Below are positions 14,301 through 30,237 of a stretch of 64,000 bases of DNA, piece after piece (position 1 is the first letter of the stretch; the number at the start of each line of letters is the position of its first letter). The notes under the pieces are model-generated. The model was not told where the DNA came from. It was given only the letters and a program-made list of their open reading frames with translations, and did not search any database. A program made the translations under genes and the position numbers. This DNA comes from Elusimicrobiota bacterium (GTDB lineage: Bacteria > Elusimicrobiota > Elusimicrobia > UBA1565 > JACRDR01), in assembly GCA_041694815.1 (NCBI GenBank), contig JBGFSC010000007.1, positions 32,001 to 96,000 on the forward strand, in the 5' to 3' direction.

Positions 14301-16671
14301 GAGGGATTCTCCATCGGGCTTGGAGACATATGGCGACGGCAGGCTGGAATTCGAACATTGCCGCGTTTCGCGATGCCGGCAGGGCGCGCATTTGCAGGAC
14401 CGGTCCATCCTAAGCACCCTCGAGAGCGCGATCGAAGACTGCGGCATCGGCTGCATTGCGGAAGCCAATTCCTCCATCGAGGCGAACGGCCTAGGCGTGA
14501 CGCGTTCCGCCTCCCATGGCGTTTGGCTGAAAGGATGCGCGCGCTTGGCCGGCATCCTCTCCGCCGCACGTTGCGGCGGTCCTGGCATCTACATCACCGA
14601 CGAAGCGCGCGCAGAGCTGTGCGGGGGCCGACTGCAAGAAAATCGCGCGGGACTGCTAGCAATGTCGGGGACTGCCGTATTGCGCGACGTCTCGCTGGAG
14701 GCGAACCTGGACATCGGCATCAGCCTTCAGGGCGGCCGCCATCGCTTGGAGGCCACGGTGTTGGGGGGGTCTCCGGCCGGCATCGGGATTTATGGCGAGA
14801 CCACCGCCGATCTTACCAATTGCCGCTTGGAGTTGTGCCAACAAGCCATCTCACTTTTCGACCGCGCCGTCATGACTGGACGTAAAATCGTCATCGCCGG
14901 CTGCAATATCGGCTGCGTCTTGGAAAATGAGGCTCGCTGCGAGGCAGAAAGACTGGAAATTTCCGGAGCCCGCCTGCACGGGTTTTGGCTCAAGGGGAAA
15001 TCGCTGCTAACCGGTTCCTTGATCGTCCGAGGTTGCGGCGGGCCGGGCGTTTACCTGACAGAGGAGGCGCGCGCCGAGCTCACCGGAGGCGAATTGACTG
15101 GCAACCGAGTGGGCTTACTGGCCCTCTCGGGAACCTCGCTTCTAAGGAAAGTGAACCTCATAGAAAATCGCGAGATCGCCTTTAGCGCGCAGACAGGCAC
15201 GCACCGCCTCCTAGAGAGTTTACTGAGAGACTCCCCTATCGGGGTGGGGGCGCACGGTCGGGGGCGGGTCGAGCTTGAGGGAACTTCGATCGGCGCCTGC
15301 CACCAAGGAGTGTTGTTGCAGGAGGAGGCCGCACTGAGCGCCAAGAGCGCCACTATAACGGATTGCGAGCTTACCTGCATCGCGGAAGGGAGTACCTCCA
15401 TCGACGCCGAGGGGCTGACCATTACACGCTCGGCTTCTCACGGCGTTTGGCTCAAGGAGCGGGCTTTTCTTTTAGGCCGGATCTCCGTCAGCAGCTGCGG
15501 CGGGCCGGGCGTTTACCTGACAGAGGAGGCGCGCGCCGAGCTCACCGGAGGCGAATTGACTGGCAACCGAGTGGGGCTGGCGGCGCTCTCCTCCGAGTCG
15601 GAGATCCAAGGCGTTGCGATCGTAGGAAACAGAGAGACTGGATGCGGAATAGAAGGCGGCAGCCATCGCCTAACTGGAGTCCGCATTGAAGGCTCGCCCA
15701 CGGCTCTGTCGGTCCATAACCAGGCGCGCGTCGAGCTCGTCGACTGTCGGTTTTCGTCAAGCCGCTACGGCGTGCTCGCGCGGGACAGGGCGTTTTTGAC
15801 GGCTCGCGGCGTCGAGAGCAACGCCTGCGAAGTCGGCTGGTTCCTCGAGGGCGCATCCTCGGTCGCCGCAAGAAGCGCGAAAGCTAGCGACTGTTCGCTC
15901 CACGGCATCTGGCTCACGGATTTCTCCTACTTAAGCGGGACGGCCGAGGTCTCATCCTGCGCAGGAACCGGAATTTATCTTGACAGCGATGCCGTACTGG
16001 AATTGACCGCCGGCCGCGTCCACGGCAATCGCGCGGGAATCGTGGCATTATCGGGAACATCCAAATTAGAGAATCTGGAAGTCTTTAACAACCGAAAGAT
16101 CGGCCTAAGCCTCCAAAACGGCTTCCACCGGCTAGTCTCGGTCTCCGTCCTAGGATCGTCGCTTGGCGTCGGCGTTTATGCGACAACGGAGGCGGAACTG
16201 CTCGATTGCCGCATCGCCGCTGCGGAGGTTGGCATCGCATGCATGGGACGCTCCCATACGCTCTTGGCGCGATGCGCCTTCACCGGGGGCCGGATCGGGC
16301 TCTGGCTGCAGGAGCACGCACACGCCAAGGCATTCCTGTGCAGATTCAGCGGACACGCACCTTACGGGGCACGGATCAGCCATCGTGCGCAGGGAATGAT
16401 CCACGCCAGTTCTTTCATCGATAACCGTGGAATCGCCTTGCTAGCGGAAGAAGGCGGCTGCGCGCGCGTGGACGCCAGCATATTCATCGGCAACCCGACC
16501 GGAATTAAGCTGGCCGACGACAGCCGCGCCTGGATCCGATCGAATCGCATCTTCGATGCGGCCGTCGATAGCGTCTGGTGTCTCCGCGGAAACGCGCGAA
16601 CCTTCACCGGTAACCGAGTGGAAAACTCGCGCCGGATTCATGAGCCGCTATTCTCGAGCTTGCGGAAATAA
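11365..16671 (+). CDS. S24/S26-family peptidase domain fused to a giant parallel beta-helix repeat region (1768 aa)
   Basis: N-terminal VEGTSM...GDLVVV...IVHRY...ITRGDA (Ser-His signal-peptidase type), a hydrophobic segment, then >1400 aa of beta-helix repeats. Confidence 0.8.
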   Translation: MADGHKLDFFAKVLLHRVEGTSMSFLLEGGDLILAKPVSAKSLRFGDLVVVKGRQGREFPRKIVHRYLGKFRKNGRLFLITRGDAQVFFDEPVPQERLLGKVFMVRRSHGWISLEAWWSRAIHVPIGAYSSLIHAAAAVAAAVFRAAALFAYPRASAAGSGPLSLLFSTIDAWFRGAELILRGILSIPAGLPLRLLGAAALPRLAPPAGLSGRLENVTLRGTVKISGDIVIPAGSTVVVEPGTRLIHEGGLGVPEILRPTKTGWRPATHRSHRNWIVYGALDLRGDPSKPVELSGKRPAHFLFLGRSRGRLESIQSAPGASASVSCWDWSKVVVAGSELRLSAAVSAFESARLTVRDSSFSGPDTALCADDRAALLLLRTSLRGFHTPLSMSLRSRTTLTECVISGGAFGPLVSGAARIALLRCRLTAVQGAPLRLLHHSETRSRSTIFESCGAGVQLRGQAAWRSSKDRLTGFDGAAVQASDKAHYFAYQSLLEQNGVGLVADGAATIEAEGLRISRCDQGIRIAELAHATLKETRISNCGHGILQLDRSTVKVAHAACDDCGSGWSAEGSASISAKGLSISRAKGHGMSLKGNAAFRGDLTAESCGEAGLFLAGNAAAELVDGRLDGNRTGLLAISGRSILASTSAFNNHEVGCDFQNGEHVQKAVRIVGSPIGIGAYKQARVNLEGCEITGCGTGAFLQDASSLDGRALSLTGCGIGCIAEGAARFEAADLEIFGAGSHGIWLKDKSVVTGNLTIASCGGPGIYLTGEEASLFLSKGILRENRAGLMALSGHSRLCAVLLEKNREIGISLQGGRHVGKELHINDSPIGLGTYRQARTDLEGCEIANCATGFFLQDASIMSSSGLLIKNCEVGCIAEGAARFEAKQAEILCSVSHGIWLKDNSLLTGFLTVRDSGGPGLYLTGDSRAELSGGGFFNNRTGMLALAGSSRLANMDFIGNREIALSVHGGRHSLQSGSLRDSPSGLETYGDGRLEFEHCRVSRCRQGAHLQDRSILSTLESAIEDCGIGCIAEANSSIEANGLGVTRSASHGVWLKGCARLAGILSAARCGGPGIYITDEARAELCGGRLQENRAGLLAMSGTAVLRDVSLEANLDIGISLQGGRHRLEATVLGGSPAGIGIYGETTADLTNCRLELCQQAISLFDRAVMTGRKIVIAGCNIGCVLENEARCEAERLEISGARLHGFWLKGKSLLTGSLIVRGCGGPGVYLTEEARAELTGGELTGNRVGLLALSGTSLLRKVNLIENREIAFSAQTGTHRLLESLLRDSPIGVGAHGRGRVELEGTSIGACHQGVLLQEEAALSAKSATITDCELTCIAEGSTSIDAEGLTITRSASHGVWLKERAFLLGRISVSSCGGPGVYLTEEARAELTGGELTGNRVGLAALSSESEIQGVAIVGNRETGCGIEGGSHRLTGVRIEGSPTALSVHNQARVELVDCRFSSSRYGVLARDRAFLTARGVESNACEVGWFLEGASSVAARSAKASDCSLHGIWLTDFSYLSGTAEVSSCAGTGIYLDSDAVLELTAGRVHGNRAGIVALSGTSKLENLEVFNNRKIGLSLQNGFHRLVSVSVLGSSLGVGVYATTEAELLDCRIAAAEVGIACMGRSHTLLARCAFTGGRIGLWLQEHAHAKAFLCRFSGHAPYGARISHRAQGMIHASSFIDNRGIALLAEEGGCARVDASIFIGNPTGIKLADDSRAWIRSNRIFDAAVDSVWCLRGNARTFTGNRVENSRRIHEPLFSSLRK
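13126..16362 (+). repeat. Seven intragenic ~154-aa (462-nt) tandem repeats
   Basis: HG(I/V/F/M)(W/S)L(K/T) motif starts at 13126, 13588, 14053, 14515, 14977, 15439 and 15901; 15034-15113 is identical to 15496-15575 (80 bp). Confidence 0.9.
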
Positions 16672-16674
16672 TTA

Positions 16675-17886
16675 TTGGTATCATCCACAATAATGGCTAC
16701 GCCCTCAAACGCACTTCCGCTGAAGCACAATGTACGGACCATGATCCGTTTGGGCGCCGATCCCATTGGAACGCTGGAGCGCGCCTACGTCCAAGATGTA
16801 CTCGACGGCCAGCGTCTTTCTTACGGCCCCTTCGTGGGCCGCTTTGAACGGCTTTTCGCGGAGGTGCACGCCTGCCGGTTCGCCGTATTCTGCAATAGCG
16901 GAACCAGCGCGCTGGAGGCCTCGATCCAAGCGCTTCGGGAGCTACATGGATGGCGCGATGGCGACGAGGTCGTCCTTCCGGCAGTGACCTTCGCAGCGAC
17001 CTTGCATGCGGTACTTAACAATCGCCTGCAGCCCGCATTCGTGGATGTCGATCCGCAGACCTTCCACATCGACGCGGCGAGAATCGAAGCAGCGATCGGG
17101 ATGCGTACCCGCGCGATCGTCCCGGTGCATCTCGCGGGCCTACCCTGCGACATGGACCCGATCCTTGAGATCGCGCGACGCCGCGGTCTGCTCATCCTAG
17201 AGGACTCCTGCCAAACGATGTATGCCCGATACCACGACCGGCCCGTTGGCTCATTGGGAGATGTGGGCTGCTTCTCAATGAATGTCGCCCACCATATCGA
17301 TGCCGGCATCGGCGGGATCGCGACCTCCAACCGTCCGGAGCTGGCCGATCTGATCCGCAGCCTGGTCAATTACGGACGCGACTCGAGAGAACTCGCAACC
17401 AACTCGCGACGATCCCGAACGCGCGCCGCCTCCATAGCGCGGCCGGCTCATAATTTTAGGCCCTCGGAACTCGAGGCGGCGATCGCCCTTGCCCAATTAG
17501 AACGTCGGGACGATATCGTGGCCGGTCGGAGACGTTCCGCGGAAACATATGCCGTCGGCCTAGCAGACCTACAAGATCGGCTTCAATTGCCCTCGATTCC
17601 GCCTGATCGCGAACATGCCTTCATGTTCTTTCCTCTGGTACTCAAACAGGGATTGAAGCATCCTCTCTTAAGGTTTCTGCAATCCAAAGGCATCGAAACG
17701 CGTGAGCTAGTCCCTTTGTTAAATCAGCCGATCTGCAAACGCCTCTTTGGCAATCTCGCTAAAGAGTACCCAGTAGCGCGCCGGCTCAACGCCCAGGCCT
17801 TTTGCATCGGCTGCCACCAGGACCTTTTGCGGGAAGACCAGCTCTACGTAGTAGAGCAGCTTCACCTCTATTTTGCGGACCACTAA
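16675..17886 (+). CDS. DegT/DnrJ/EryC1/StrS-fold PLP enzyme, His-type (probable NDP-sugar 3-dehydratase)
   Basis: CNSGTSAL, VPVHLAGLPCDM, ILEDSCQ; active-site segment FSMNVAHHIDAGIGG has His where aminotransferases have Lys. Confidence 0.85.
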   Translation: MVSSTIMATPSNALPLKHNVRTMIRLGADPIGTLERAYVQDVLDGQRLSYGPFVGRFERLFAEVHACRFAVFCNSGTSALEASIQALRELHGWRDGDEVVLPAVTFAATLHAVLNNRLQPAFVDVDPQTFHIDAARIEAAIGMRTRAIVPVHLAGLPCDMDPILEIARRRGLLILEDSCQTMYARYHDRPVGSLGDVGCFSMNVAHHIDAGIGGIATSNRPELADLIRSLVNYGRDSRELATNSRRSRTRAASIARPAHNFRPSELEAAIALAQLERRDDIVAGRRRSAETYAVGLADLQDRLQLPSIPPDREHAFMFFPLVLKQGLKHPLLRFLQSKGIETRELVPLLNQPICKRLFGNLAKEYPVARRLNAQAFCIGCHQDLLREDQLYVVEQLHLYFADH

Positions 17887-17892
17887 CGCCTT

Positions 17893-18882
17893 ATGCGGAT
17901 GTTGATCCTGGGTGGCACCGGATTCCTAGGGAGGCACCTCGTTGAGGCCGCGTCGGCACGCGGTCACCGCATCGTCCTCTTCAACCGCGGAATCACCGCT
18001 CCAAGACTCTTTCCGGAACTCGAGACCTTACGCGGGGACCGCCGGGGACCGCTTTCGCCGCTCGAGCACCGAACGTGGGACGCAGTCGTCGATACCTGCG
18101 GGTATTACCCGTGGGAAGTGGACCGTTGCGTCCGCGCCCTTGCCGCCAAGGTTGGCCACTACCTATTCGTGTCCAGCATAGCGGTCTACGCTGATTTCGG
18201 GAAACATCGAATCACCGAGAACGAACCGACGATCGAGCCGGTGTCTGGAATCGGGGGGTTCTGCGGCGAAGTGACCTTAGACAATTACGGATCCTTGAAG
18301 TCGGAATGTGAACGATCACTGTCGAGCCTACTGCCAGAACGGGCCCTCACCATCCGTCCCGGGGTCATCGTGGGTCCCTGGGATCCCCTGGACCGGCTGG
18401 GTTACTGGGTCCGCAAAGCGCGGGAACCGGAGGGAGCCGCACCGGGCAGGCCGGAACGCGCCATCCAACTCATCGATGTCCGCGATCTCGCGCTATGGAT
18501 GGTCCGGATGCTCGAAGCAGGTCAGACCGGAGTTTTCAACGCGTCGGGCCCCGGGGAACCCCTCACCATGAACCGCATCCTTGAGGCCTGCGCCCGGCGG
18601 CACGCGCAGCGCACTCGGTGGACATGGGTTGCTGATTCCATTTTGGTTGCCAACGGGATCAGACGCCTGCCGCTGTGGATGCCTGAAGACAAGAACAACG
18701 CCGGTTTTTTTAACGTAGATTCGAGCAAGGCCGTCCAAGAAGGCCTTGCCTTTCGCCCTTTCGCGGAAACCGTCGATGCCGTCGCCCGTTGGGCGGAGGG
18801 GTGCCAGGTACCGACGCCTTTCGGCTTGACGCCAGACCAAGAACGGAGCCTCATCGCGACCACGGCTCGCAATGTCGGCTAA
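17893..18882 (+). CDS. NAD-dependent epimerase/dehydratase (extended/atypical SDR)
   Basis: LILGGTGFLG, FNRG, YGSLKSECE (YxxxK), IRPGVIVGP, IDVRDLA. Confidence 0.88.
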   Translation: MRMLILGGTGFLGRHLVEAASARGHRIVLFNRGITAPRLFPELETLRGDRRGPLSPLEHRTWDAVVDTCGYYPWEVDRCVRALAAKVGHYLFVSSIAVYADFGKHRITENEPTIEPVSGIGGFCGEVTLDNYGSLKSECERSLSSLLPERALTIRPGVIVGPWDPLDRLGYWVRKAREPEGAAPGRPERAIQLIDVRDLALWMVRMLEAGQTGVFNASGPGEPLTMNRILEACARRHAQRTRWTWVADSILVANGIRRLPLWMPEDKNNAGFFNVDSSKAVQEGLAFRPFAETVDAVARWAEGCQVPTPFGLTPDQERSLIATTARNVG

Positions 18883-18908
18883 CTACTAGTGGGGCGGCAA
18901 AAAAACTA

Positions 18909-18937
18909 TTGACAGGATAAATTCAGTCTATTAGCAT
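18909..18937 (+). promoter_or_regulatory. Sigma70-type promoter for the peptide/RRE operon
   Basis: TTGACA (18909-14), 17 nt spacer, TAGCAT (18932-37), with an A-rich tract upstream; 10 nt before ATG 18948. Confidence 0.75.
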
Positions 18938-18947
18938 ATGGTGTCCC

Positions 18948-19058
18948 ATGAAAAAGCCGCGTAATAAGGGCAAGAACAAGAAGAGGAAGTGGACCCCGCC
19001 GACCCTGACTCGACACGATCAAATCTACTCCTCTCCCGTCGCGGCGTATCCTAGCTAA
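18948..19058 (+). CDS. Putative RiPP precursor peptide, 36 aa
   Basis: Hand translation MKKPRNKGKNKKRKWTPPTLTRHDQIYSSPVAAYPS*; Lys-rich N-terminus plus WxxPxL motif; 14 nt upstream of a PqqD gene. Confidence 0.8.
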   Translation: MKKPRNKGKNKKRKWTPPTLTRHDQIYSSPVAAYPS

Positions 19059-19072
19059 CAGCCCGACAGCTC

Positions 19073-19357
19073 ATGCCGCCGAAGGATTTCAAGAATAAAT
19101 CCATCCGTCGCAATCCACGCGTGGCATGGAGGATGGTCGGGGAAGAAGCGGTGCTCGTTCACCTGGAAAGGAATTTCTATTTTACCCTCGATGCAGTGGG
19201 CTCCCGGATTTGGCAGAATCTTGACTCCGAAACCTCCTGGGATGGTCTGGCCGCCTGGGCGAAAAAAGAATACGATGGGCCTGAAAAAGCCATCGAATCT
19301 GATTTGAGCCGTTTCATTGATCAAATGGCCAAGGAAAACATCATTCTTGTCGGCTGA
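19073..19357 (+). CDS. PqqD-family RiPP recognition element (stand-alone RRE)
   Basis: 94 aa; RRNPRVAWRMVGEEAVLV...YFTLDAVGSRIWQNL...EYD...IESDLSRFIDQMAKENII is the typical PqqD pattern. Confidence 0.92.
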   Translation: MPPKDFKNKSIRRNPRVAWRMVGEEAVLVHLERNFYFTLDAVGSRIWQNLDSETSWDGLAAWAKKEYDGPEKAIESDLSRFIDQMAKENIILVG

Positions 19358-19361
19358 AACG

Positions 19362-20546
19362 TTGGTCAATCCGCCGACCGTCAGCATCGTGATTCCCTGC
19401 TGGCGGCAATCGGCGAGCCTGTGGCCCAGCCTTAATGCCTGCCTGAAACAAGACTACCCCGCGTTGCGCGAGATCATCGTCGTTCATCGCGACTTCACAA
19501 GCGAAGAAAAGGCGCGGCTGGCCGATTGGCCGGTGGTGTCCCAAGAGGTCCGTAGGCCCGGCCCTGCGGCCGCCCGAAATCTCGGCGTCCGAGCCGCACA
19601 CGGCGAATATATCGCCTTCATCGACAGCGATTGCGTGCCGGAACGCCCTTGGTTGAAGCGGCTCATCCAATCCCTCAACCATCCCTCCATCGTCGGTGCA
19701 GGAGGCAGGGTGCGCTCGGCCGTTCCCAGAACTCCCACACAACATTATTTGAATCGAATGCAGGACGCCGGAGTCTTCTTGAATCAAGAATATTCATTCT
19801 ATGACGAGTTCCCTTTGCCGTTTCTTACCACACAGAATTGCCTCTACTTGCGCCGGGCGCTTCTTGCGGCCGGCCTGCTCGATGAAACCCTCCATTCTGG
19901 AGACGACCAAGACCTGCCGTGGCGGTTGATTTTGGAAGGCTGGCAAATCCGCTATGTGCCGGATGCCGTCGTCTATCATGAGCACCCCCGCAATCTTCGT
20001 AGTCTTCTGCGCCAGCACTTCCGGGCCGGACGAGCGGCGACGGATTTGATGGTCAAGTACGCGGACTTCCCGTTTCATCTCGCCGGAACCTGTCATCGCT
20101 TCTCCGCATACGCCTGGTATCTCCGCAAGGTGTGGTCCGGCTTTGCTCACGATTCCAGGCGCGACAAGGTCTTGACGACATTAAGAGTAACCGCAACCAT
20201 GGCGGGCCGCCTCTATCAGCGCTTGCGCCGGCTCCTGTGGGAACAGTTGCCGCGCCTGCCCCTTCCTGCGGAGGATTACGCATGGGTCCTTCATCGCGGC
20301 GGCAAGATTGTGTTGCAGGGGCTCAGGCGCTCCGAACGGATAGAGCTCAACGAATCCGCCTCCTTTATCTGGCTGGAGCACCTCAGGGGCGCTGATGACA
20401 GGACCGTCGCGCACCGCGTCGCGCAAGAGTTCGATGTCGGGACCGACGCAGCCGAGCAGGCGGTGTCGTCCTTGTTGAGTACGGTGCGCCGATTAAAAGT
20501 GAGAACACCCAAGCGGTCTGGAGAGCCGGCATGCCTCATCCAGTAA
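19362..20546 (+). CDS. GT2 glycosyltransferase fused to a C-terminal PqqD/RRE domain
   Basis: VSIVIPC, GPAAARNLG, FIDSDC, GDDQDLPWRL; C-terminal IELNESASFIWLEHLRG...VAHRVAQEFDVGTDAAEQAVSSLL. Probable TTG start at 19362 (ORF open from 19317). Confidence 0.85.
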   Translation: MVNPPTVSIVIPCWRQSASLWPSLNACLKQDYPALREIIVVHRDFTSEEKARLADWPVVSQEVRRPGPAAARNLGVRAAHGEYIAFIDSDCVPERPWLKRLIQSLNHPSIVGAGGRVRSAVPRTPTQHYLNRMQDAGVFLNQEYSFYDEFPLPFLTTQNCLYLRRALLAAGLLDETLHSGDDQDLPWRLILEGWQIRYVPDAVVYHEHPRNLRSLLRQHFRAGRAATDLMVKYADFPFHLAGTCHRFSAYAWYLRKVWSGFAHDSRRDKVLTTLRVTATMAGRLYQRLRRLLWEQLPRLPLPAEDYAWVLHRGGKIVLQGLRRSERIELNESASFIWLEHLRGADDRTVAHRVAQEFDVGTDAAEQAVSSLLSTVRRLKVRTPKRSGEPACLIQ

Positions 20547-21865
20547 GGCTCGAAAATTCGGCTGTGCTGCGACGCCACCTTCTGCGCCTGGGAGAAGGCG
20601 ACCCAAAAGTCGCCGCCCAAGCGCTTCGCTCCCTGAAAGCCGACCCCGCCATCGCCTGGGAACGTTTTTCCCACACGCCTTCTGAACGACGCGCCACCGA
20701 ACGAAGGCTAGGGGCAGGCTTTCCGGTGACCGTCCGTCGGCTCCTTGAGGACGCCACCCGAGGGTCCGCGGCCCTCCTTTACGACTTGGCGTCCTTGCAC
20801 GGCATACGCCCATGGATCGAACGGGGTATTGAGCGGACGCTCGGGAAGGCGGCACGCGAACGGTTCCGCGCCATCTGCTTCGCTTCCGATCACGCGGCCT
20901 ATCCGTATCAGCTGACTGTTTATCTGACGCATCAATGCAACAGCCGCTGTTCTTATTGCTTCGCGCTGGAAGACATGAAGAACGACCGCAGCTACATCTC
21001 GATGGAAAATTTCCAAAAGATTCTCGATTGGGCAAGGGGCCAGCCTATCTCCTGCCTGAACTTGCTAGGAGGCGAGCCGACCGTGCACCCTCGCTTTTCG
21101 GACTTCATGCGCATGGCCGGACGGCAAAAGCTTCTCGTATACTTCTCGACAAACAACCTATATCCGGAACGAGTGCTGCGGGCCATAGAGTCAGCGCGGG
21201 TCTTCAACATCCAGGTACACGCCATGGAACCGGAACAGTATCATCCCCAGCAGTGGAAAACCTTCCAACGCAATTTGGGGGCCATCTCGACGCGCGGCAT
21301 CCAGGTTTGGCTGCGCTACAATCTATACAGCCTTGATCAAGAGAAGAGATGGCACTTCTTGTTCGAGCTCTGCGAGCGATATCGACTACCCCGGATTAAC
21401 TTTGCCCTGACGTTTCCGGTGGGTGGAGGCGTCAACCGGCATGTCGCCCTCGCCGATTTTAGCCGTTTCGCAAAAATGACGGTGCGCTTCTTGAAGGAGT
21501 GCTCGAGTCGCGATATCGAGCCGGTGATCACAAAGTCCTTCCCTATCTGCTATTTTGAGCCGGAAGACCAAGCCTTCGTCATGGAGCGATGCCGCTTCCA
21601 GAATATCTGTACGGTCCAGCGCGCCGATTACACGTACAACATCATCGTCCGCCCCGATCTCAGCCTCGATCCATGCATAGCACTGAAATGGAAGCAAGGG
21701 AATCTGCTGGACTTTCGCGACCTGACGGCATTGGGTACGTTATTCAGGGATCGGATAGACTCCCTCCAAAAGGCGCCGTTGTTCGACGAATGCGAAACAT
21801 GCCCCATTTATCCACTCAACGTCTGCCAGGGCACGTGTCTCGCCTATAAGGACCTACCCGCCTAA
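20531..21865 (+). CDS. Radical SAM/SPASM protein, candidate peptide maturase
   Basis: CNSRCSYC, LLGGEPTVHP, C-terminal C...PC...CETCPIYPLNVCQGTC. Confidence 0.9.
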   Translation: MPHPVRLENSAVLRRHLLRLGEGDPKVAAQALRSLKADPAIAWERFSHTPSERRATERRLGAGFPVTVRRLLEDATRGSAALLYDLASLHGIRPWIERGIERTLGKAARERFRAICFASDHAAYPYQLTVYLTHQCNSRCSYCFALEDMKNDRSYISMENFQKILDWARGQPISCLNLLGGEPTVHPRFSDFMRMAGRQKLLVYFSTNNLYPERVLRAIESARVFNIQVHAMEPEQYHPQQWKTFQRNLGAISTRGIQVWLRYNLYSLDQEKRWHFLFELCERYRLPRINFALTFPVGGGVNRHVALADFSRFAKMTVRFLKECSSRDIEPVITKSFPICYFEPEDQAFVMERCRFQNICTVQRADYTYNIIVRPDLSLDPCIALKWKQGNLLDFRDLTALGTLFRDRIDSLQKAPLFDECETCPIYPLNVCQGTCLAYKDLPA

Positions 21866-23419
21866 TCAGGCCACCCTGGTCCGCGCCCCATGCTTTGATC
21901 TTTCGAATAGTTCCAACAATCGAATCAACTCTTGGTCCTGCTCCAACCAATGCGGATGCTCAGCCGAACGATCAGTGATCGTGGGCCGCGGTTCGAATGA
22001 GTATCCTCTTGCGCTCAAAAAAGAGAAAAATTCCTCGTAAATGTCGATAGGCTTGCAATCAACCCTAACCCTAAGACCATCCAATCGTTTCCTCACGCCA
22101 GTGGGGTGGCCGTATAAATACTGCACATACATGCCGAACTTTTTGGCTAGTCCTAACTCCTCCTCGCTCCAACTGGCCGTCCGAATCACCTCGTAGGGCG
22201 GCTTGGGATCATGCTCAATCCCGTACTTTCCCGGAGAGATCGCGAATTCAGACCCAGGCACCACGACAAAAGGATGAATGACCAGGGCATCGGGCTCCAG
22301 GCGCAGCGCATAATCGATGGACTCCCTGAAGCCTTCATAATGATCGCCTGGCAAACCGCAAATGAGCTCCAATATCGCCCGTCCACTCAACGTGCTCCGA
22401 AATCTCCTGAACCGTTCCGCGTATCTCTCCTTATGCAGGACCCTGCCAGAAGCCTCAAGAGCTCCCGCATACACCGTCTGAAGGCCGGCGACGTATACAT
22501 TGGAAGAGAAACAAGAGTCCCGTAGCAATTCCAGCAGCTCCTCATCGAGGTGTTCGGGATTCATGGAGAATGCAATTCCCACCGGGGCCATGCCCGACTC
22601 CTCTCTTGCTCCATTTTCTTCTATGAGGATACGCAACAGCCCTTTCGCGTGAGCCGGGGGCAGCAGGATATCCGCATCGCAGAACGTGACGATTTGGAGT
22701 TGGGGCAACCGAAAAAATATTCCAAAATCCTCCCGCACTTGGTCCAAGCTCCGCAGGCGCAGCCTACGCCCAATCCCGCTGACGTCCCAAGAACAATATC
22801 GGCACACGAATGGACAACCTCGGGACGCCTCATAACGCATTTGGCCCGCCGCAGCAAACCCTCGCAGCTCTTCTCGAAACATGCTCCAACTGAAGCGCAT
22901 TTGCTCCAGATCGGCAACGGGCGGGCGAGGAATGTTCATCACAACCTCGCCATTCGCACGCCAGGCGATTCCCTGCACGGAATGCAACGGCATCCCCTGC
23001 TCGAGGGTTCGAAGCAGGTCGACAAGAGTTATCTCCCCTTCGCCTATGCAGACGAAATCCAAGGCGGGATGACGCCGGAGGATATCGGTCGGTGTGGTCG
23101 TCACTTCCGGACCTCCAACGATGATCCGAACCTCTGGACGCAGCTCCTTGATGGCTTGGCAGAGCGAAAATACCCTCGAAGAATTCCATGCGTAGACCGA
23201 AAAGCCTATAAGATTTGGCTCCTGCGAGAGGATCCATTCGATGATCAATGAATCCTCATCGGTGGAATAAAATCCCTTATAACTGATCTCCTTCTGATCA
23301 AAGCCCGCGCGCTGGACAGCATACCCGACCAGATGCAGTATGGACAGCGGTAGAGGAAAACCTACGTCGTTTCCAACTAGGTTAGATTTGGGTGAAATGC
23401 CGACTAGGCAGGCGCGCAT
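21866..23419 (-). CDS. B12-binding radical SAM protein
   Basis: IGFSVYAWN, IVGGPE, IGEGEIT, EASRGCPFVCRYC. Confidence 0.92.
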   Translation of the reverse strand: MRACLVGISPKSNLVGNDVGFPLPLSILHLVGYAVQRAGFDQKEISYKGFYSTDEDSLIIEWILSQEPNLIGFSVYAWNSSRVFSLCQAIKELRPEVRIIVGGPEVTTTPTDILRRHPALDFVCIGEGEITLVDLLRTLEQGMPLHSVQGIAWRANGEVVMNIPRPPVADLEQMRFSWSMFREELRGFAAAGQMRYEASRGCPFVCRYCSWDVSGIGRRLRLRSLDQVREDFGIFFRLPQLQIVTFCDADILLPPAHAKGLLRILIEENGAREESGMAPVGIAFSMNPEHLDEELLELLRDSCFSSNVYVAGLQTVYAGALEASGRVLHKERYAERFRRFRSTLSGRAILELICGLPGDHYEGFRESIDYALRLEPDALVIHPFVVVPGSEFAISPGKYGIEHDPKPPYEVIRTASWSEEELGLAKKFGMYVQYLYGHPTGVRKRLDGLRVRVDCKPIDIYEEFFSFLSARGYSFEPRPTITDRSAEHPHWLEQDQELIRLLELFERSKHGARTRVA

Positions 23420-23421
23420 GG

Positions 23422-24372
23422 TTAATCGCGTATACGCCTAGCGAATAAGCAGCGCTGCCCTGCGTAGTAAGGGACAACCGCCTGGGATAATCCACCAAGT
23501 CTTACGGCAAGCCCGGCCAAGGCCCCAAACATCGCCGAGATGGATTTCGCGCGGATCGCAAGGTAACCCAGAGGCAAGTATTGGACGTGTCGTTTGACGG
23601 CGAAAACTTCGAAACCTCGTCGCGCAATGAGCGCAGTCAAGGTTTGAGGAGTAAAGTAAAACAGATGCGCTGAGAGAAGAAACCACCACCGTCGGCCAAA
23701 CAGTTTGGCCAACGGGTCCGAAATGTCGGGCCAATTCACAACTAGGAGACCCCCAGGTTTCAACAACCTTGCCGCCTCTTTTACAGCGGAAGCCGGATCC
23801 GAAAGGTGTTCCAGGACGTCCCAAAACGTCACCAAGTCGAAATAAGCGTCCGACCAAGGGGCTGCCTGCAACGTCGCCGCTTCGATGGATACGCCGGTCC
23901 GTTCGCGGGCAAACCGCCGCAACCAAGCGTTCGGCTCGACGCCGCTCGCCTTCCAGCCGTGCTCTTCCGCAATCCTCATAAAAAAGCCGGCCGCCGCGCC
24001 GACATCGAGTGCCCTCCCGGTTGAGGGCAGGTGCGGTTGCATGCTTCTCCAGTATCCGCGAAAGGTCCTCATCCGGCTTGCCATCTGCTCAACGTAGCGA
24101 GCGTCCTCACCTTCCGAATACGCATCAAGAACGGCTCTCGGATGGGGCTGAGGATTAAGATAAACCAGATCGCAGCGGCGACACCGCACTAGGCGTTCGC
24201 TCCCAAGACGGTCGCTAGTAGCCGTAAAGTTAGAATCAGAATTCCCCGAGACCCGAGGCGACGTTTCAAAGACGAACACGGCATCATCGGCGCCGCATAG
24301 ATTGCACGCGACGTGGACGCGATCGGCGCCAGGCCGATTGCTGGCAAATGATTCAACCCGTGCGCAGCTCAT
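23422..24372 (-). CDS. Class I SAM-dependent methyltransferase with N-terminal Cys-pair (Zn ribbon) region
   Basis: CNLC...CRRC, LDVGAAAG, DVLEHLSDP, LLKPGG. Confidence 0.9.
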   Translation of the reverse strand: MSCARVESFASNRPGADRVHVACNLCGADDAVFVFETSPRVSGNSDSNFTATSDRLGSERLVRCRRCDLVYLNPQPHPRAVLDAYSEGEDARYVEQMASRMRTFRGYWRSMQPHLPSTGRALDVGAAAGFFMRIAEEHGWKASGVEPNAWLRRFARERTGVSIEAATLQAAPWSDAYFDLVTFWDVLEHLSDPASAVKEAARLLKPGGLLVVNWPDISDPLAKLFGRRWWFLLSAHLFYFTPQTLTALIARRGFEVFAVKRHVQYLPLGYLAIRAKSISAMFGALAGLAVRLGGLSQAVVPYYAGQRCLFARRIRD

Positions 24373-25957
24373 CGATGGGATTCGAATAAAAGAGCCTTGG
24401 GAAGAAAACCCTGGCAGCCGTCGACGCCTTCCACCCTAGGGAACCGTCCCGGAAGCTATTGCGAAACTGCCTAGCAAGGTACCTCGGCCGGGAATAGAAT
24501 TCCCAATAAAAGCGGTTATACCAGCTTTTGAGCACTTGCGGCGTCAGCTCAGGATTAGGATGCGTATAGACGTCGGCGGCACGGTGGACGTTGTAGAGGT
24601 CCCAACGCTCCGGCTTTTTTATCAGGCCCTTACGCTCATACTCCGCGAAGAGCGGCGTGTCCGGAAAGGGCATGCAAACGGTAACTTTTGCGTAATCAGG
24701 CATCAGACGCTTCGCGAATTCAAAAGTGGCGCGCATCGACCGGAATGTCTCCCCTGGCGTGCCGATCATAAAGAAACCGACCACCTCGATGCCGACCGCG
24801 CGAAACATTTCCATAGCCTCGATACTTTGCTCGACATCAAGGTCCTTTTTTATGGAGTCCAGCGCGCCCTGATCGCCGGACTCAAAACCGCACGCAACCT
24901 GATACAAGCCTGCGCGCTTAAAATGCTCCAGGAACCGACGTGAACAACGGTCGGCACGGATGCCGGCGGCAAGATTAAAGTCAAACTTGAGGCCGGCCGC
25001 AAGGACTTTTTCGGCAATTTCCTCCGCGCGTTTAACGCTTGCCAAAAACTGATCATCGACAATGCGCACTTCCTTGATGCCGAAGGCTTTATAATGTACG
25101 AGTTCCGCCAACACGCGATCGGCGCTAAAAACACGGTACTGATCGTACGATGCCGAGCAGAAACTACACTCGGAGGGGCAGCCCCTGCTGGTCTCCAACT
25201 GAATCAGTGGGTGGCTGCGAGCGATCAGGCGCGGATTGCGGTAGCGCCAGAATTCATAGAGCTCCAGATCCTGGAATGGAAGCGCATCAAGCTCATCGCG
25301 GCGCATTTTAGGCCGTGGCGGCGTGAATTCGATCTCAGGCTCGTCCGAAAGGACCGCATCCTTTTGAACGGCATAAGCGCCCTCACCGTTGGCAAGGCGT
25401 GTAATAATCCCATCGACGTCGATCATCATCCGCCGCCGATCATCCTTCCGGTAAGCGATCCCTTTGATCTCGGCTCGTGCCTTCTGCTGGCAGATTTCAC
25501 CGAACGTTTTTTCTCCTTCTCCGATAACGACCACATCGCACATCGAATCGACCAGGCTTTCCACGGGCAGACGCCGGTTGAGGCCACCCGAAGCATGCAC
25601 TCCTCCGTGGATCACGATCGACTCGGGTCCCAACACCCACTTGGCAATGATACCCGCCAACTTGGCCTCATAATAGACCGGTGTCGTAACGGTTAGGCAG
25701 ACGAATTTCGGCTTTTCCTCAATGAGAAATCGGACCAGCCCCTTCCAAGCCATGGCTTGGCGGTTATCACGTATGCCCATATCGAAGATCGCAGTCTTAA
25801 ATCCAGGGATCAGCCTTTTGACGTACGCTGATAGCCAAAGAAAGGCTCCAACCATCTGCACCTGCGTGGCAACGTCAATCTTCGTTCCCGTATAAGCGGT
25901 GAACATGCTGGGTTGCACGATGAATGCCGCCTTCGCTTCGTCTAGCTTAGGGTGCAT
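24353..25957 (-). CDS. B12-binding radical SAM protein
   Basis: HGGVHAS, IGEGEKT, ETSRGCPSECSFC, GFESG, FFMIGTPGET, PFPDTPLF. Confidence 0.92.
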   Translation of the reverse strand: MHPKLDEAKAAFIVQPSMFTAYTGTKIDVATQVQMVGAFLWLSAYVKRLIPGFKTAIFDMGIRDNRQAMAWKGLVRFLIEEKPKFVCLTVTTPVYYEAKLAGIIAKWVLGPESIVIHGGVHASGGLNRRLPVESLVDSMCDVVVIGEGEKTFGEICQQKARAEIKGIAYRKDDRRRMMIDVDGIITRLANGEGAYAVQKDAVLSDEPEIEFTPPRPKMRRDELDALPFQDLELYEFWRYRNPRLIARSHPLIQLETSRGCPSECSFCSASYDQYRVFSADRVLAELVHYKAFGIKEVRIVDDQFLASVKRAEEIAEKVLAAGLKFDFNLAAGIRADRCSRRFLEHFKRAGLYQVACGFESGDQGALDSIKKDLDVEQSIEAMEMFRAVGIEVVGFFMIGTPGETFRSMRATFEFAKRLMPDYAKVTVCMPFPDTPLFAEYERKGLIKKPERWDLYNVHRAADVYTHPNPELTPQVLKSWYNRFYWEFYSRPRYLARQFRNSFRDGSLGWKASTAARVFFPRLFYSNPIDELRTG

Positions 25958-26006
25958 TGCTAATTATCACTCACGCGATTAAATATGGTAAAAGGCGTCA
26001 GCGCAG

Positions 26007-27539
26007 ATGAGCGGCAAACAAAAATCAGGCCTAGTCCGAGGCGCGACGACAGTCTTCTTCCTCGCAACCGCGGCGCTTCTTTGGCGCGAATTAGGCCGCA
26101 CAGGGCTCATATCGGATGAAGGGCGCTTGGGAGCCTACGCCTCCTACATGCTCTGGGGTGAGCCGGCGCTGGAGCTCCTACAGAATCCTTTCCAGCAGTT
26201 CGCGGGCCGCATACTACTTCAGTATAGCTTTTATGTCGGCCCATGGAACTGTTACGCCGTAGCGCTTATGCTCTGGCTAACCCAGGACAAAGTGCTGGCC
26301 ATCAAGCTGGTCGCGCTCACATGGGGGCTTTTAGGGGTTTGGGCTTGCTACCGACTCTCTTCTGTCTGCTCCTGTAGCAGGAGAACGGGCCTTTTGAGCG
26401 CAGCCGTACTGGTAACAAGTCCTTTTTTCCTTTCCATGTTGAGGGCCGATTTCTTCCTGCCTGCGATTTTCTTCACCGCTTTCGCTTTCGCAATGCTGTT
26501 TAAGGTCGTGCGAACCGGACGTGACAAACACTGGCTTTTATCGCTGGCGCTAGTGGGCATGGGCATTGGCTTCTCCCACCCATTCTTAGCGGCGGCGGCC
26601 TCTTTTCTTTTACTCGCTTGGCGGCATCGCCGGCGTCTACCGATCCTCCGTCCGGGAAAGACGCCGACCTCCCGGCTTGCCTTATCGACGGCGCTGCTCT
26701 CCGTGGGCATATTCCCGCTCGTGCTGGCAAACATGCTCAACGGATGGCAAGCGCTGACATGGGCCTTCGAATTCCTGTTCGTTTCGCTCAACGGAGTCCA
26801 TAACGACGATTATCTGCGGAACCTGGCGCATCGACTGGGCGATCTCGTCAAGGTGTTCGGCTTACCCGGCCTATCTCTTTCTGGATTGGCACTGGCTCTC
26901 TATGCCATCGGCCGACAACGCTCGTCGCCGAATGCCAACACCGCAGGATCGCTTTGGGTCGCGACAGCCCCCATCGTGCTGCTATCTCCGCTCACCTTCT
27001 GTTCCTTAGTCCCCCCTCACTTGGCGTCCCTTTTTCCGATCGTTCTCGCCGCCATCGCCGCGACGCCTTGCGCCATTTCTGCCGCGCACGGCAGGTGGAG
27101 AGCGACCGCTCCCTTGGTCCTTGGGCTTTGGCTCGGCGTCAATGTTTTGAGCCGGGCACGAGGTCGCGGGACAGCGGTTCCAGAAGCACCCCGGCAGATC
27201 CTCGATGTGGCGCGCTGGGCCGATAACCGAACTGGAACCTACTCTACGTTCTCTTTCTCAACCTACTGGCCTTTGATCTACCTTATGAAGAATAGCCAAA
27301 ACATCGATTGTTTTATCGGCAGGCGGTCTGACCCCGTAGCCTTGGAGCGCCACGTCGGCGCTATGATCGACCAATCACACCGACACGGAGCCGTGCTTAT
27401 GACCGGTGATCCCCTTGAAAAGCCGGCTCTCACCGCGATGGCATCGGCGGCGCGGCGGCGCGGAAAAAAGATTGTTCTTGCCGAGCAATTCAGGGCAGGC
27501 GATGGCTCGGTGGTGTATAGGGTCTATGAATTCCGGTGA
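26007..27539 (+). CDS. Polytopic membrane protein, probable GT-C (ArnT/PMT-like) glycosyltransferase
   Basis: 'ISDEG' acidic pair after the first TM, 'YVGP', about 10-12 hydrophobic segments, soluble C-terminus; glycosylation context. Confidence 0.6.
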   Translation: MSGKQKSGLVRGATTVFFLATAALLWRELGRTGLISDEGRLGAYASYMLWGEPALELLQNPFQQFAGRILLQYSFYVGPWNCYAVALMLWLTQDKVLAIKLVALTWGLLGVWACYRLSSVCSCSRRTGLLSAAVLVTSPFFLSMLRADFFLPAIFFTAFAFAMLFKVVRTGRDKHWLLSLALVGMGIGFSHPFLAAAASFLLLAWRHRRRLPILRPGKTPTSRLALSTALLSVGIFPLVLANMLNGWQALTWAFEFLFVSLNGVHNDDYLRNLAHRLGDLVKVFGLPGLSLSGLALALYAIGRQRSSPNANTAGSLWVATAPIVLLSPLTFCSLVPPHLASLFPIVLAAIAATPCAISAAHGRWRATAPLVLGLWLGVNVLSRARGRGTAVPEAPRQILDVARWADNRTGTYSTFSFSTYWPLIYLMKNSQNIDCFIGRRSDPVALERHVGAMIDQSHRHGAVLMTGDPLEKPALTAMASAARRRGKKIVLAEQFRAGDGSVVYRVYEFR

Positions 27540-27544
27540 TACCT

Positions 27545-28267
27545 TCAGACGAACCGGTATTTCAGAAGACTCCAAAGCCCAATAAAAAAATCCGCGGCTT
27601 TAATTTTTTTCCCTTCAGCCCTTGACCTAGGATGGTATCCGACCTCCACCTCGATAATCGGCAATCCCCGAAGAATCAGCTTGGCGGTGATCTCATGGTC
27701 TGCCTCGAATCCTAAGGATTGAACGCCCATGCCCCGCACCTGGTCGATCGGATAAAGCTTGTATCCAGTCAACGGGTCGGCGATTCGACGCTGATATAAA
27801 AGCGCGATCCAGGCCGATAGCAGACGGTTGGCCAGCCAGGCACCAATCTCTTGATTAGGGTGCTTTTTCCCCCGTGCAACCCCGCGACTTCCGTAAACTG
27901 CTGCCTCAGGATGGCGCGCCAAGGCCTCCAGCATTCTTGGATAGTCGCAAGGATCGTATTCGAGATCCGCGTCTTGGATCAGAACATAATCGCCGGAGGC
28001 TGCCTCGATGCCACGTTGGACCGCCGCCCCCTTACCTCGGTTGGGCTGCCGTACGCACATTACCCTGCGGTCCGAAGCGGCGATTTGACCCGTCCGGTCC
28101 GTAGAACCGTCGTCTACGACGATGATTTCTGTCGCGATCCCCTTCAAGGCAGCACAGGCCGCGTGGACGCGGTCGATAAGAACGCCGAGCGTCCTTTCTT
28201 CGTTATATGCCGGAATCACGATCGAAAGCGATCCGATCCCGCGACTTACCTTAGCGTCCGTCCGCAC
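27545..28267 (-). CDS. GT2, polyprenol-phosphate glycosyltransferase (DPM1/ArnC-like); start uncertain
   Basis: LSIVIPAYNEE, VVDDGSTDRT, NRGKGAA, IQDADLEYDP, YHPRSRAEGKKI. Nearest in-frame GTG at 28267; ORF open to 28381. Confidence 0.88.
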   Translation of the reverse strand: MRTDAKVSRGIGSLSIVIPAYNEERTLGVLIDRVHAACAALKGIATEIIVVDDGSTDRTGQIAASDRRVMCVRQPNRGKGAAVQRGIEAASGDYVLIQDADLEYDPCDYPRMLEALARHPEAAVYGSRGVARGKKHPNQEIGAWLANRLLSAWIALLYQRRIADPLTGYKLYPIDQVRGMGVQSLGFEADHEITAKLILRGLPIIEVEVGYHPRSRAEGKKIKAADFFIGLWSLLKYRFV

Positions 28268-29516: not shown

Positions 29517-30237
29517 AGACCCGGACCGTGATCAAGGAGCCTGCACCGTCGTCGAAATCGGGAAGATGGGCCAACAGGTTGTGCTCCCTGGTCGTCTTTC
29601 CTTGGGGCGGGCTTTCCAGACTTCCTTGCAGTACTCGAAATAATGCACTGGTCCTGAACAAGAAAAGTCCGCAGTCGTTTTCGCCACGTTCCGGAATCTG
29701 CTCCGATTCCCGCGTTTGCAATACGCGAATGATTCTCCGGGAGGAATCGCGTACGAGATGCACATAGGGGCGATCGCGTAAGACCGCGGGGATCGCCGCA
29801 TTCGCCGAAGCGTTTGCCTCCAGCAGGGTCATGCATGCCGCCACCGTCCGCGGACGAGGAGTGATCTGGTCTCCCCAAAGCACGAGTGTATAGGGAGTCC
29901 GCACCACCTCTCTGCAGAGCGTCACCGCTGGCGCGGTACCGGAGGGGTGATCCTGCACCAATATCCGTGTTCGCCCCCGCATCTCTGCGCTTAACGCGGC
30001 CCTCAAAGGAGAGGTCGCCTCCGGAGAAACTACGAAAACCAAGCGGCTGCAGATGGGCTCCAGGAGATCGATGATCCAGTGTAGAATCGGCCTCCCTAAT
30101 ACCGGATATAGAATCTTGGGACCGCGCGTCCCTAGGCGGGTCCCATTTCCTGCCGCCGGTACAATAGCGGTCCATTGAAGTGCTAATTCGGGTCCGCGCG
30201 CTTGGGGCACGCCATCAATATCATAGACTCGGCGCAT
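29371..30237 (-). CDS. Sugar-phosphate nucleotidyltransferase (GlmU N-terminal-like)
   Basis: VPAAGNGTRLG...PKILYPV, Q..PSGTA, LWGDQ, GENDCGLFLF, GINT. Confidence 0.85.
   Translation of the reverse strand: MRRVYDIDGVPQARGPELALQWTAIVPAAGNGTRLGTRGPKILYPVLGRPILHWIIDLLEPICSRLVFVVSPEATSPLRAALSAEMRGRTRILVQDHPSGTAPAVTLCREVVRTPYTLVLWGDQITPRPRTVAACMTLLEANASANAAIPAVLRDRPYVHLVRDSSRRIIRVLQTRESEQIPERGENDCGLFLFRTSALFRVLQGSLESPPQGKTTREHNLLAHLPDFDDGAGSLITVRVYDPIETVGINTAQDAESVARALRRRTKQAVQTGLGRHVQRRNWNGLDY

Follow-up and report, generated by a model that had tools for sequence, protein, structure and literature searches.

A putative precursor peptide beside a glycosyltransferase fused to a RiPP recognition element in Elusimicrobiota

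Introduction

A 64,000-nucleotide stretch of an Elusimicrobiota genome (assembly GCA_041694815.1, contig JBGFSC010000007.1, positions 32,001 to 96,000 of the forward strand; hereafter the window) contains a short open reading frame (ORF) of 36 aa, at 18948-19058, that was missed by gene callers and that, judged from its sequence and from structure modeling, very probably encodes a genuine precursor peptide recognized by PqqD-type recognition elements (RREs) of peptides that are ribosomally made and modified post-translationally (RiPPs). The ORF is followed by the genes of a discrete PqqD-type RRE, of a family 2 glycosyltransferase (GT2) that ends in a PqqD domain of its own, and of a radical S-adenosylmethionine (SAM) enzyme. 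We propose, with a probability of about 0.65, that the ORF is the precursor gene of a ribosomal peptide that is glycosylated in an RRE-dependent manner and would be processed by the surrounding gene cluster. The genes, their domains, and the recurrence of the arrangement at five loci carry this proposal, together with a contact between leader and RRE that a structure model supports. We regard the pathway as a rare, uncharacterized variant among RRE-dependent peptide modifications, the logic of which comes nearest to that of the linear polyphosphorylated peptides (LPPs). We read the ORF as a precursor gene because an equivalent small ORF adjoins the GT2-RRE fusion in all five genomes that have the fusion and because the KWTPPTL region of the peptide is placed on the fused RRE in the model.

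Results

The peptide ORF and its operon. The peptide (MKKPRNKGKNKKRKWTPPTLTRHDQIYSSPVAAYPS) ends in the tail YSSPVAAYPS, its last five residues being AAYPS. An earlier note on this DNA had pointed out the ORF, and its length of 36 aa, its sequence, its coordinates, and its strand are as given there; the remark that the peptide has no Cys is borne out by the translation. The tight coupling that the note had described also holds, since only 14 nt separate the end of the ORF from the start of the discrete PqqD gene on the same strand and since the genes that follow overlap: the PqqD and GT2 genes by 41 nt when the latter is read from TTG 19317 or by 11 nt with the 399-aa call, and the GT2 and radical SAM genes by 16 nt. 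PF05402 matches both the stand-alone PqqD protein and the C terminus of the GT2, in agreement with the gene order given earlier. The nearest solved chain to the discrete PqqD protein is TbiB1 (5V1U; E = 2.7e-8), and its match to the lasso_PqqD_Bac model, at 40 bits, is under the cut-off of 80. In the fusion, GT2 domains occupy residues 19-238 and PF05402 matches residues 333-392 (27.7 bits; cut-off, 23.4), and the DxD-type residues Asp103/Asp105 are conserved in the fusion alignment described below.

Within the source genome, a 2.77-Mb assembly of 54 contigs that is 97.8% complete and has 62.9% G+C, a six-frame filter for [YW]xxPxL after a start with at least 35% Lys/Arg returned 16 small ORFs, among which the peptide ORF is the sole Lys-rich one. 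An RRE profile run on the whole genome found two RRE-domain ORFs in all, both of which adjoin the peptide ORF.

Recurrence of the small ORF beside GT2-PqqD fusions. A profile search of 1.84 billion representative proteins returned many single-stretch, full-length matches to the fusion, of about 375-445 aa. We aligned 30 sequences, namely, the window protein, two copies from a second genome of the phylum (G032), and 27 representatives picked from the best 150 matches; the aligned fusions (∼390 aa) share GT-A motifs and the C-terminal PqqD domain. The resulting family profile matches GT2 structures in its N-terminal part and the lasso RRE TbiB1 at positions 311-388 (E = 9e-15), and the window fusion matches the profile over positions 3-386 (E = 2.5e-108). 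Ten of the representatives were looked up, two of which had a named source, one an Elusimicrobia metagenome-assembled genome (MAG) and the other an Omnitrophica MAG. Five of 401 sampled genomes of the phylum carry a full-length fusion: the source genome of the window (G000), G032 with its two copies, G185, G156, and G144. No further fusion was found in 122 genomes of the class around G185. The 79 loci retrieved by a search with a three-sequence alignment held nearly exclusively ordinary GT2 proteins (matched at residues 20-240), the sole full-length fusion among them being at L014, which is the G032 locus, and the RRE profile found no other fusion over the same 79 loci.

The earlier note had suggested scanning homologs of the fusion for an adjacent motif-bearing short ORF, and such an ORF is present in all five fusion genomes: it encodes 27-37 aa, lies 12-260 nt from a fusion gene, and opens with a Lys-rich stretch ahead of [Y/W]xxPxL. 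Besides the window peptide, the products are MEKKKAKKKVYKKPVLKKYQLPKKIGATAIFI in G185, MKKKPEPKKIYKKPILKKFKLTTKLGVSTMFV in G032, MEKKNNEKKKMYKKPLLKKYKLGNKLSVSPTMFLTAC in G156, and MKKKLSYSKPKLIKYRRIKKAPVFLGS in G144. All five peptides have the aromatic residue, a Pro three residues on, and a Leu two residues further, P18 and L20 (numbered as in the window peptide) being invariant, and the four other than the window peptide end in Phe-containing hydrophobic tails. The ORF lies upstream of the fusion gene at two loci and downstream of it at three, a variable placement that speaks for a selected ORF and against inherited noise. A GAAGGAG Shine-Dalgarno site precedes the G032 ORF. The same motif filter applied to 112 loci retrieved for other reasons returned these peptides and only four unrelated ORFs (in five rows).

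Discrete PqqD genes are found at four of the five loci (the window and three of the four others), and several RREs per cluster seem to be usual in the GT2-PqqD family. The G185 locus has two discrete PqqD genes (L264 7541-7813 and L143 7503-7769, both on the minus strand) beside the fused one, and G032 has two fusions instead. A DNA-pattern scan of metagenomes for YKKPxLKK[Y/F] gave at least 118 stretches, a chance-like yield, 38 of which lie in ORFs of at most 70 aa; no RRE-domain ORF was found near any of the 118 stretches among the matches listed. One 627-base metagenome fragment has a 58-aa ORF (L233 193-369, plus strand) whose N-terminal half is acidic and is followed by YKKPQLKKY and a short tail; its product resembles an RRE-type precursor. 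At a Smithella MAG locus with an ordinary GT2, a discrete 103-aa ORF (L073 6642-6953, plus strand) is PqqD-like (RRE profile, E = 6.9e-9).

Predicted docking of the leader on the fused RRE. Popov et al. (PMC13381572) describe [Y/W]xxPx[L/V/I/F/A] as the motif, mapped by experiment, with which the leaders of lasso and LPP precursors bind their RREs. A complex prediction, also among the checks proposed in the earlier note, was run with the fused RRE: the window fusion, with its 30-row alignment, was folded with the 36-aa peptide in ESMFold2 in three runs accompanied by three controls. The ipSAE was 0.70-0.71 in all three runs and 0.00 in the best control. Of 157 solved complexes, 116 score this high, as do 2 of 215 mismatched pairs. 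The three runs have at least 61% of their contacts in common, with a pLDDT of 59 or more for the partner. In the model, peptide residues 12-26 (KRKWTPPTLTRHDQI) contact fusion residues 333-389, that is, the PqqD domain, and the predicted interface uses the motif residues and the same surface, formed by a beta-strand and a helix, as lasso leader recognition.

A candidate leader peptidase. The long protein encoded upstream of the operon has a peptidase domain at residues ∼15-115, with Ser22, His65, Asp84, and Asp90. An N-terminal domain of ∼110 residues is common to this 1768-aa beta-helix protein, to a 776-aa beta-helix protein of G032, to a 524-aa methyltransferase of G144, and to a 365-aa protein of G156. 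All four homologs match TIGR02228, the model of archaeal-type signal peptidase I (best E = 1.8e-15), three of them match SipW, and the domain profile matches human SEC11A structures at an E value of 1.9e-8. In the alignment of the four domains, the His and the two Asp residues are invariant, and the nucleophile Ser is present in three. In G185, such a domain occurs in a 369-aa protein ∼10 kb away, so that a signal peptidase I-like domain is found at all five loci. A DegT gene follows the peptidase gene of the window after 3 nt, an epimerase-like gene comes after a further 6 nt, and another 65 nt lead to the peptide operon, all on one strand. By sequence and by analogy, the N terminus of the 1768-aa protein is a candidate for the leader peptidase of the pathway, of the same kind as the LPP peptidase. 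In the G144 domain, which is fused to a methyltransferase (L145 1400-2974, plus strand), Cys takes the place of the SM-motif Ser (GKCMGF), and the His and both Asp residues are kept.

The radical SAM enzyme of the operon. The CxxxCxxC motif of this enzyme consists of C136, C140, and C143, and its seven C-terminal Cys residues, which include CxxCx7CxxxC, are invariant among five sequences (the enzyme and its four detectable relatives). The best fold matches of its AlphaFold model (mean pLDDT, 68) are SPASM/twitch peptide maturases, namely, SuiB (E = 1.9e-13), SkfB, anSME, CteB, and PqqE. Sequence and model together indicate that it is likely a SPASM enzyme. Of the earlier description of it as a SPASM radical SAM enzyme, the radical SAM part is borne out and the SPASM part is likely, but the Pfam SPASM model PF13186 does not match it. 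No RRE fold was found in its first 123 residues, where the model is all-helical and of low confidence. This N-terminal extension (20531-20900; ∼123 residues) is without a family match and is longer still in the relatives P0223-P0225.

The wider gene cluster. The 3-kb operon that had been taken as the frame of the system proves too narrow, given that the peptidase and accessory genes recur around the fusion loci (Table 1). By BLAST and Pfam, the accessory genes common to several of these loci encode B12-dependent radical SAM enzymes, a GT1, a second GT2, a methyltransferase, a PMT_2 protein, and an ABC-2 exporter, and the recurrent radical enzymes are of the B12 type. Among the window genes, the B12-binding radical SAM enzyme with a TPR tail shares 31-37% identity, along almost the entire protein, with each of the five B12-dependent radical SAM genes of G185 and G156 (L143/L144; E = 1e-86 to 1e-106), and the ABC-2 pair is 37-46% identical to that of the G144 locus. 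The PMT_2 gene would also belong to the peptide pathway, as might the genes in 1263-7134, to judge by their position.

Table 1. Features of the window discussed in the text, in order of position
Feature	Position	Strand	Basis and remarks
Radical SAM gene	1263-2216	-	Pfam
Radical SAM gene, SPASM	2222-3427	-	Pfam
B12-binding radical SAM enzyme with TPR tail, 550 aa	3373-5025	-	Nearest relative in the window of the B12 enzymes of the family
Small beta-helix protein	5088-5933	-	
Radical SAM gene, SPASM	5941-7134	-	Pfam
GT1/GT4 glycosyltransferase	7210-8481	-	45% identity to the GT1 of the G032 locus; also related to those of G144 and G156
ABC-2 type exporter pair	9793-11315	-	ATPase ORF 9793-10974 and permease ORF 10542-11315, overlapping; ABC_tran, ABC2_membrane
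1768-aa protein with N-terminal archaeal-type signal peptidase I domain	11365-16671	+	Hydrophobic segments; long beta-helix region (Beta_helix/NosD)
DegT/DnrJ/EryC1-type sugar aminotransferase	16675-17886	+	295 bits; PseC/WecE-like matches below cut-offs; 3 nt past the peptidase gene
NAD-binding epimerase/dehydratase-like protein	17893-18882	+	N-terminal Rossmann motif match only, 39 bits
Sigma-70-like promoter match, TTGACA-17-TAGCAT	18909-18937	+	10/12 matches; best site within 17800-27700
Candidate precursor peptide, 36 aa	18948-19058	+	ATG start; Lys-rich N terminus, W15-T-P-P-T-L20 RRE motif, Ser/Tyr/Pro-rich tail
Discrete PqqD-type RRE, 94 aa, lasso-B1-like	19073-19357	+	PF05402 at 57 bits
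GT2 glycosyltransferase with C-terminal PqqD/RRE domain	19347-20546	+	399-aa public gene call from TTG 19347; longest ORF from TTG 19317
Radical SAM enzyme, 444 aa, helical N-terminal extension, SPASM-like seven-Cys C terminus	20531-21865	+	Pfam, alignment, structure model
B12-binding radical SAM enzyme, 517 aa	21866-23419	-	Weak similarity (21-27% identity) to B12-dependent radical SAM genes of L143/L144
SAM methyltransferase (Methyltransf_23)	23422-24372	-	Related to the G144-locus methyltransferase L145 4224-5000 (22% identity, E = 1e-11)
B12-binding radical SAM enzyme, 534 aa	24353-25957	-	Distant relative of the B12-dependent radical SAM genes of the family
PMT_2/GT-C-type glycosyltransferase, 510 aa	26007-27539	+	28.3 bits; a PMT_2 protein also at the G144 locus

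Several further observations concern this neighborhood. The window has seven radical SAM genes within a span of 26 kb. At 28251-30237, on the minus strand, a CofD-like 2-phospho-L-lactate transferase homolog (102 bits) stands beside a MobA/IspD-like nucleotidyltransferase, the NTP_transf_3 protein at 29371-30237; the pair is reminiscent of F420 side-chain enzymes, although its surroundings are those of a glycan locus, and could serve to attach a phospho-linked group to the peptide or to a sugar. The G144 locus encodes a 382-aa protein (L145 10336-11484, minus strand) with a weak HprK_C match (26.6 bits; cut-off, 33.3), the only one of its kind at these loci, and a HEPN protein (L145 9934-10335, minus strand), both just upstream of its PqqD-peptide-fusion genes. 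Since an HprK-like kinase defines LPPs and paeninodin-type peptides, the G144 locus may be an intermediate between the LPP and the GT2-RRE systems. At 34170-35285, on the plus strand, the window has an ordinary and unrelated MsrB-MsrA fusion (SelR and PMSR) with an N-terminal extension of ∼75 residues.

Comparison with known systems

The system nearest in logic is that of the LPPs, which are produced by LppA/LppB/LppS/LppK/LppN/LppD of Paenibacillus alginolyticus, a member of the Bacillota (Popov et al., Nat Commun 2026; PMC13381572). As the relevant passages of that study have it, the LPP leader consensus is YxxPxVLxHQxIxFETxxS, which contains the [Y/W]xxPx[L/V/I/F/A] motif bound by lasso RREs; the leader peptidase was shown to be SpI-like (LppS) and to require the RRE; and the clusters are embedded in capsule loci, with final products that could not be identified. 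Judged against the same passages, the window is alike in being linear RiPP-type and having no cyclase, in its leader motif, its discrete PqqD-type RRE, its SipW/SEC11-like signal peptidase I as the candidate for leader removal, and its setting in a polysaccharide locus. A comparison of the leaders by eye aligns WxxPxL..H..QI of the window peptide with YxxPxVLxHQxI of the LPPs, W15, P18, L20, H23, and I26 fitting the consensus and L-10, Q-7, and F-E-T of the consensus being unmatched. The two systems differ, on the strength of what those passages describe, in their hosts (Bacillota versus Elusimicrobiota), in precursor length (35-200 aa in LPPs versus 27-37 aa in the GT2-RRE family), in the exporter (MsbA-like in LPPs, ABC-2 type in the window), and in the peptidase, which is a separate small protein in LPP clusters but is fused to a beta-helix protein, or elsewhere to a methyltransferase, at the GT2-RRE loci. 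What marks the GT2-RRE system is a GT2 that carries an RRE itself, along with B12-dependent radical SAM enzymes. The HprK-like kinase that polyphosphorylates a core Ser in LPPs is not encoded in the window, the sole PF07475 match of the genome (223 bits) being on another contig and presumably belonging to an ordinary HPr kinase. LPP clusters further include an NTP transferase; the NTP_transf_3 protein of the window (29371-30237) would have only a conjectural place in the peptide pathway.

Lasso peptide biosynthesis (TbiA/TbiB1; PDB 5V1U/5V1V) shares the RRE and the leader motif with the window, as both PqqD domains are closest to TbiB1 and the window leader has the lasso motif WTPPTL. The window peptide, in contrast, lacks a core that starts with Gly/Ala/Ser/Cys and bears Asp/Glu at positions 7-9. 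The B2 protease PF13471 has no match in the whole 2.77-Mb genome, and all seven genome matches to the Asn-synthase cyclase PF00733 lie outside the window, three strong ones being on other contigs. We consequently rejected a lasso system, as the earlier note had done. Glycocins (sublancin SunA/SunS, glycocin F, and thurandacin) offer the precedent of a GT2-family GT-A enzyme that acts on a ribosomal peptide, a function that is suggested here by sequence, and the first ∼90 positions of the fusion family profile find a match in SunS structures (E = 6e-13). Glycocin transferases, which are not known to carry an RRE, modify Cys/Ser/Thr in helical peptides stapled by disulfides. A glycocin was rejected because the window peptide has no Cys, the transferase carries a PqqD domain, and recognition of a leader motif is predicted.

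Mycofactocin biosynthesis (MftA-F) combines similar parts, in that a short peptide is accompanied by a PqqD chaperone, by a SPASM-type radical SAM enzyme, and by an MftF-like GT2; the window GT2 differs in carrying an RRE. MftF is the best NCBIfam match of that GT2 (E = 2.8e-43; 148.4 bits, cut-off 280), and the radical SAM enzyme matches MftC at 40.7 bits (cut-off, 265). The MftA precursor ends in Gly-Val-Tyr. With both scores far below their cut-offs and a peptide that ends in AAYPS instead of GVY, membership in this system was rejected. No MftD- or MftE-type enzyme appears among the Pfam matches of the scanned window ORFs, among which these families were not searched for by model name.

Fusions of an RRE with a glycosyltransferase were noticed before: RRE-Finder listed RRE-PF00535 fusions in 2020 as a sign of unknown RiPP classes (PMC7470986), and a 2025 survey of RREs lists them as well (PMC12710340). 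The passages in question give the fusions without a precursor, a motif, a peptidase, or a product, whereas the GT2-PqqD family now has a candidate precursor and a candidate peptidase. In literature with limited coverage of subscription journals, we found neither a characterized pathway with an RRE-fused GT2 nor a study combining Elusimicrobia, RiPPs, and radical SAM enzymes. The earlier statement that the combination is not a characterized RiPP class therefore stands insofar as no characterization was found, but it has to be tempered by the LPPs, which, in the passages cited above, share the leader motif, the discrete RRE, and the kind of peptidase.

Discussion

Our working model, from production of the peptide through every chemical step, the acceptor residue, and the cleavage site to the export route, is one that we infer, and it would run as follows. 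The Lys-rich leader with W15-x-x-P18-x-L20 would dock as a beta-strand on the PqqD-type RREs, both the discrete one and the one fused to the GT2. The fused RRE would hold the peptide while its short C-terminal tail receives a sugar, activated as a nucleotide derivative, from the GT-A domain, the likeliest acceptors being Ser28 and Ser29 ahead of Pro30, with Tyr27, Tyr34, and Ser36 as further possibilities. The DegT aminotransferase and the epimerase-like gene could supply an amino sugar. The discrete RRE would probably serve the enzymes that have no RRE, namely, the SPASM-like radical SAM enzyme of the operon and the signal peptidase I-like domain. Further modifications, for instance C-methylation of the sugar or of the peptide itself, may come from the radical SAM enzymes, the B12-dependent ones included, and the YSSPVAAYPS tail would be both glycosylated and modified by radical chemistry. 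The signal peptidase I domain of the 1768-aa protein might then remove the leader, as LppS does in LPP biosynthesis, and the ABC-2 exporter would carry the product out.

A number of observations weigh against this model of an RRE-dependent glycosylated peptide. The window operon is a divergent singleton: its fusion aligns end to end with the 29 others at only 22-29% identity and is a divergent member of the family, it has no close homolog among 5.8 billion proteins (the next best is 38% identical over 57% of the length), and the relatives of the radical SAM enzyme in the same set are rare (three, at 28-36% identity). No counterpart of that enzyme was found at the other four GT2-PqqD loci, and it is not a conserved partner in the family, where the recurrent radical enzymes are of the B12 type. 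The sample that shows recurrence is small, with five loci from one phylum and related genomes that are not independent. A profile of the four other peptides, searched against the 23,392 small ORFs of the genome, placed the window peptide at rank 13 (E = 44) without composition correction and at rank 8,464 with it, the top match being ribosomal protein L36; the link of the window peptide to the other four therefore rests on motif, position, and predicted binding and not on demonstrable homology. No strong Shine-Dalgarno site stands ahead of the peptide ATG at 18948, where there is only GGTG. The promoter that had been proposed upstream is present and is the best site of its region, but it is not statistically distinctive, as positions 17800-27700 hold 6 promoter-like sites compared with 4.1 ± 1.6 in shuffles, which is not above chance. 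The end of its -10 hexamer is only 10 nt before the ATG, and a transcript from that promoter would thus be nearly leaderless. The predicted complex does not bring residues 27-36, which form the tail, close to the active site of the GT. Since structures of RRE-leader complexes have been solved, resemblance to these, and not binding by this copy, may be what the score of the complex captures. The match of the window peptidase domain to TIGR02228 (E = 7.4e-13; 48.7 bits) falls just below the cut-off of 51.85, and the surrounding genes resemble a polysaccharide locus, many of which may not act on the peptide.

The main alternative, which we consider unlikely, is a reading in which the peptide is a ribosomally made primer or anchor that replaces the usual lipid carrier of a larger, tailored surface glycan. 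The GT2-RRE would prime synthesis on the tail; the GT1, the other GT2 proteins, and the PMT_2 protein would extend the chain; the aminotransferase, the methyltransferase, and the B12-dependent radical SAM enzymes would tailor its sugars; a Wzm/Wzt-like ABC-2 exporter would bring the glycoconjugate to the surface; and the signal-peptidase/beta-helix protein would trim the leader at the membrane. The operon lies in a polysaccharide-type locus of ∼30 kb, with the ABC-2 pair, a GT1, two further GT2 proteins, PMT_2, DegT, an AlgX-like SGNH protein, the CofD-like transferase, and the nucleotidyltransferase, and the same accessory set is found at other fusion loci, although such co-location with glycan genes may be a coincidence or reflect a shared sugar supply. 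The proposed cores, of about 5-10 residues, are variable, as expected of a handle and not of a pharmacophore, and the relatives of the B12-dependent radical SAM enzymes include sugar-modifying enzymes (KedN5, AprD4, and HpnJ-like matches). The LPP clusters, too, are described as lying in capsule loci, with final products that could not be identified (PMC13381572). The logic of the RREs nevertheless fits an ordinary RiPP equally well, extension of a chain has in addition to be presumed, and the literature searched contained no such bacterial pathway. If this reading were true, Elusimicrobiota, and perhaps Omnitrophota, would make envelope polysaccharide by a route that a peptide primes.

Two other explanations appear highly improbable to us. 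The cluster might make a scaffold like that of mycofactocin, in which the radical SAM enzyme and the discrete PqqD protein would modify a Tyr-containing C terminus and the small molecule released from it would be glycosylated by the MftF-like GT2. The parts resemble mftA/B/C/F, MftF is the best-scoring NCBIfam model for the GT2, several of the nearest relatives of that GT2 are named "mycofactocin system glycosyltransferase" in their source databases, and Tyr34 is close to the C terminus. The low MftF and MftC scores, the lack of MftD/MftE-type Pfam matches among the scanned ORFs, and the C terminus itself speak against it, as do the Phe-containing ends of the other four peptides and the other four loci, from which the radical SAM enzyme is absent; moreover, an RRE on the GT2 implies that the transferase, unlike MftF, meets a peptide that still bears its leader. 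We give equally little credit to the idea that 18948-19058 is a chance ORF and no gene, in which case the two RRE domains would serve another, unseen substrate. Its shortness, the weakness of its ribosome-binding site, and the lack of significant profile similarity to the peptides of the other loci would fit that idea, but an equivalent motif-bearing ORF occurs at five of five loci, the ORF is the only Lys-rich one with the motif in a genome of 62.9% G+C and lies 14 nt upstream of a discrete PqqD gene, and the predicted interface uses exactly the motif residues.

Under our preferred reading of an RRE-dependent glycosylated peptide, the RRE-fused glycosyltransferases, which the passages cited above have listed since 2020 without a substrate (PMC7470986), gain a candidate substrate peptide with a recognizable docking motif. 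A candidate leader peptidase of the type described for LPPs in 2026 (in the passages of PMC13381572 cited above) and a recurrent set of tailoring enzymes are now attached to the GT2-RRE fusions, and what had been an oddity of annotation thereby becomes a pathway that can be tested directly with three small genes. If confirmed, the fusion would be a leader-guided peptide glycosyltransferase of use for engineering, and the signal-peptidase type of RiPP leader removal would reach from the Bacillota to a distant phylum. Confirmation would also raise the question of whether these peptides are antibiotics, signals, or surface-glycan anchors in uncultured groundwater bacteria.

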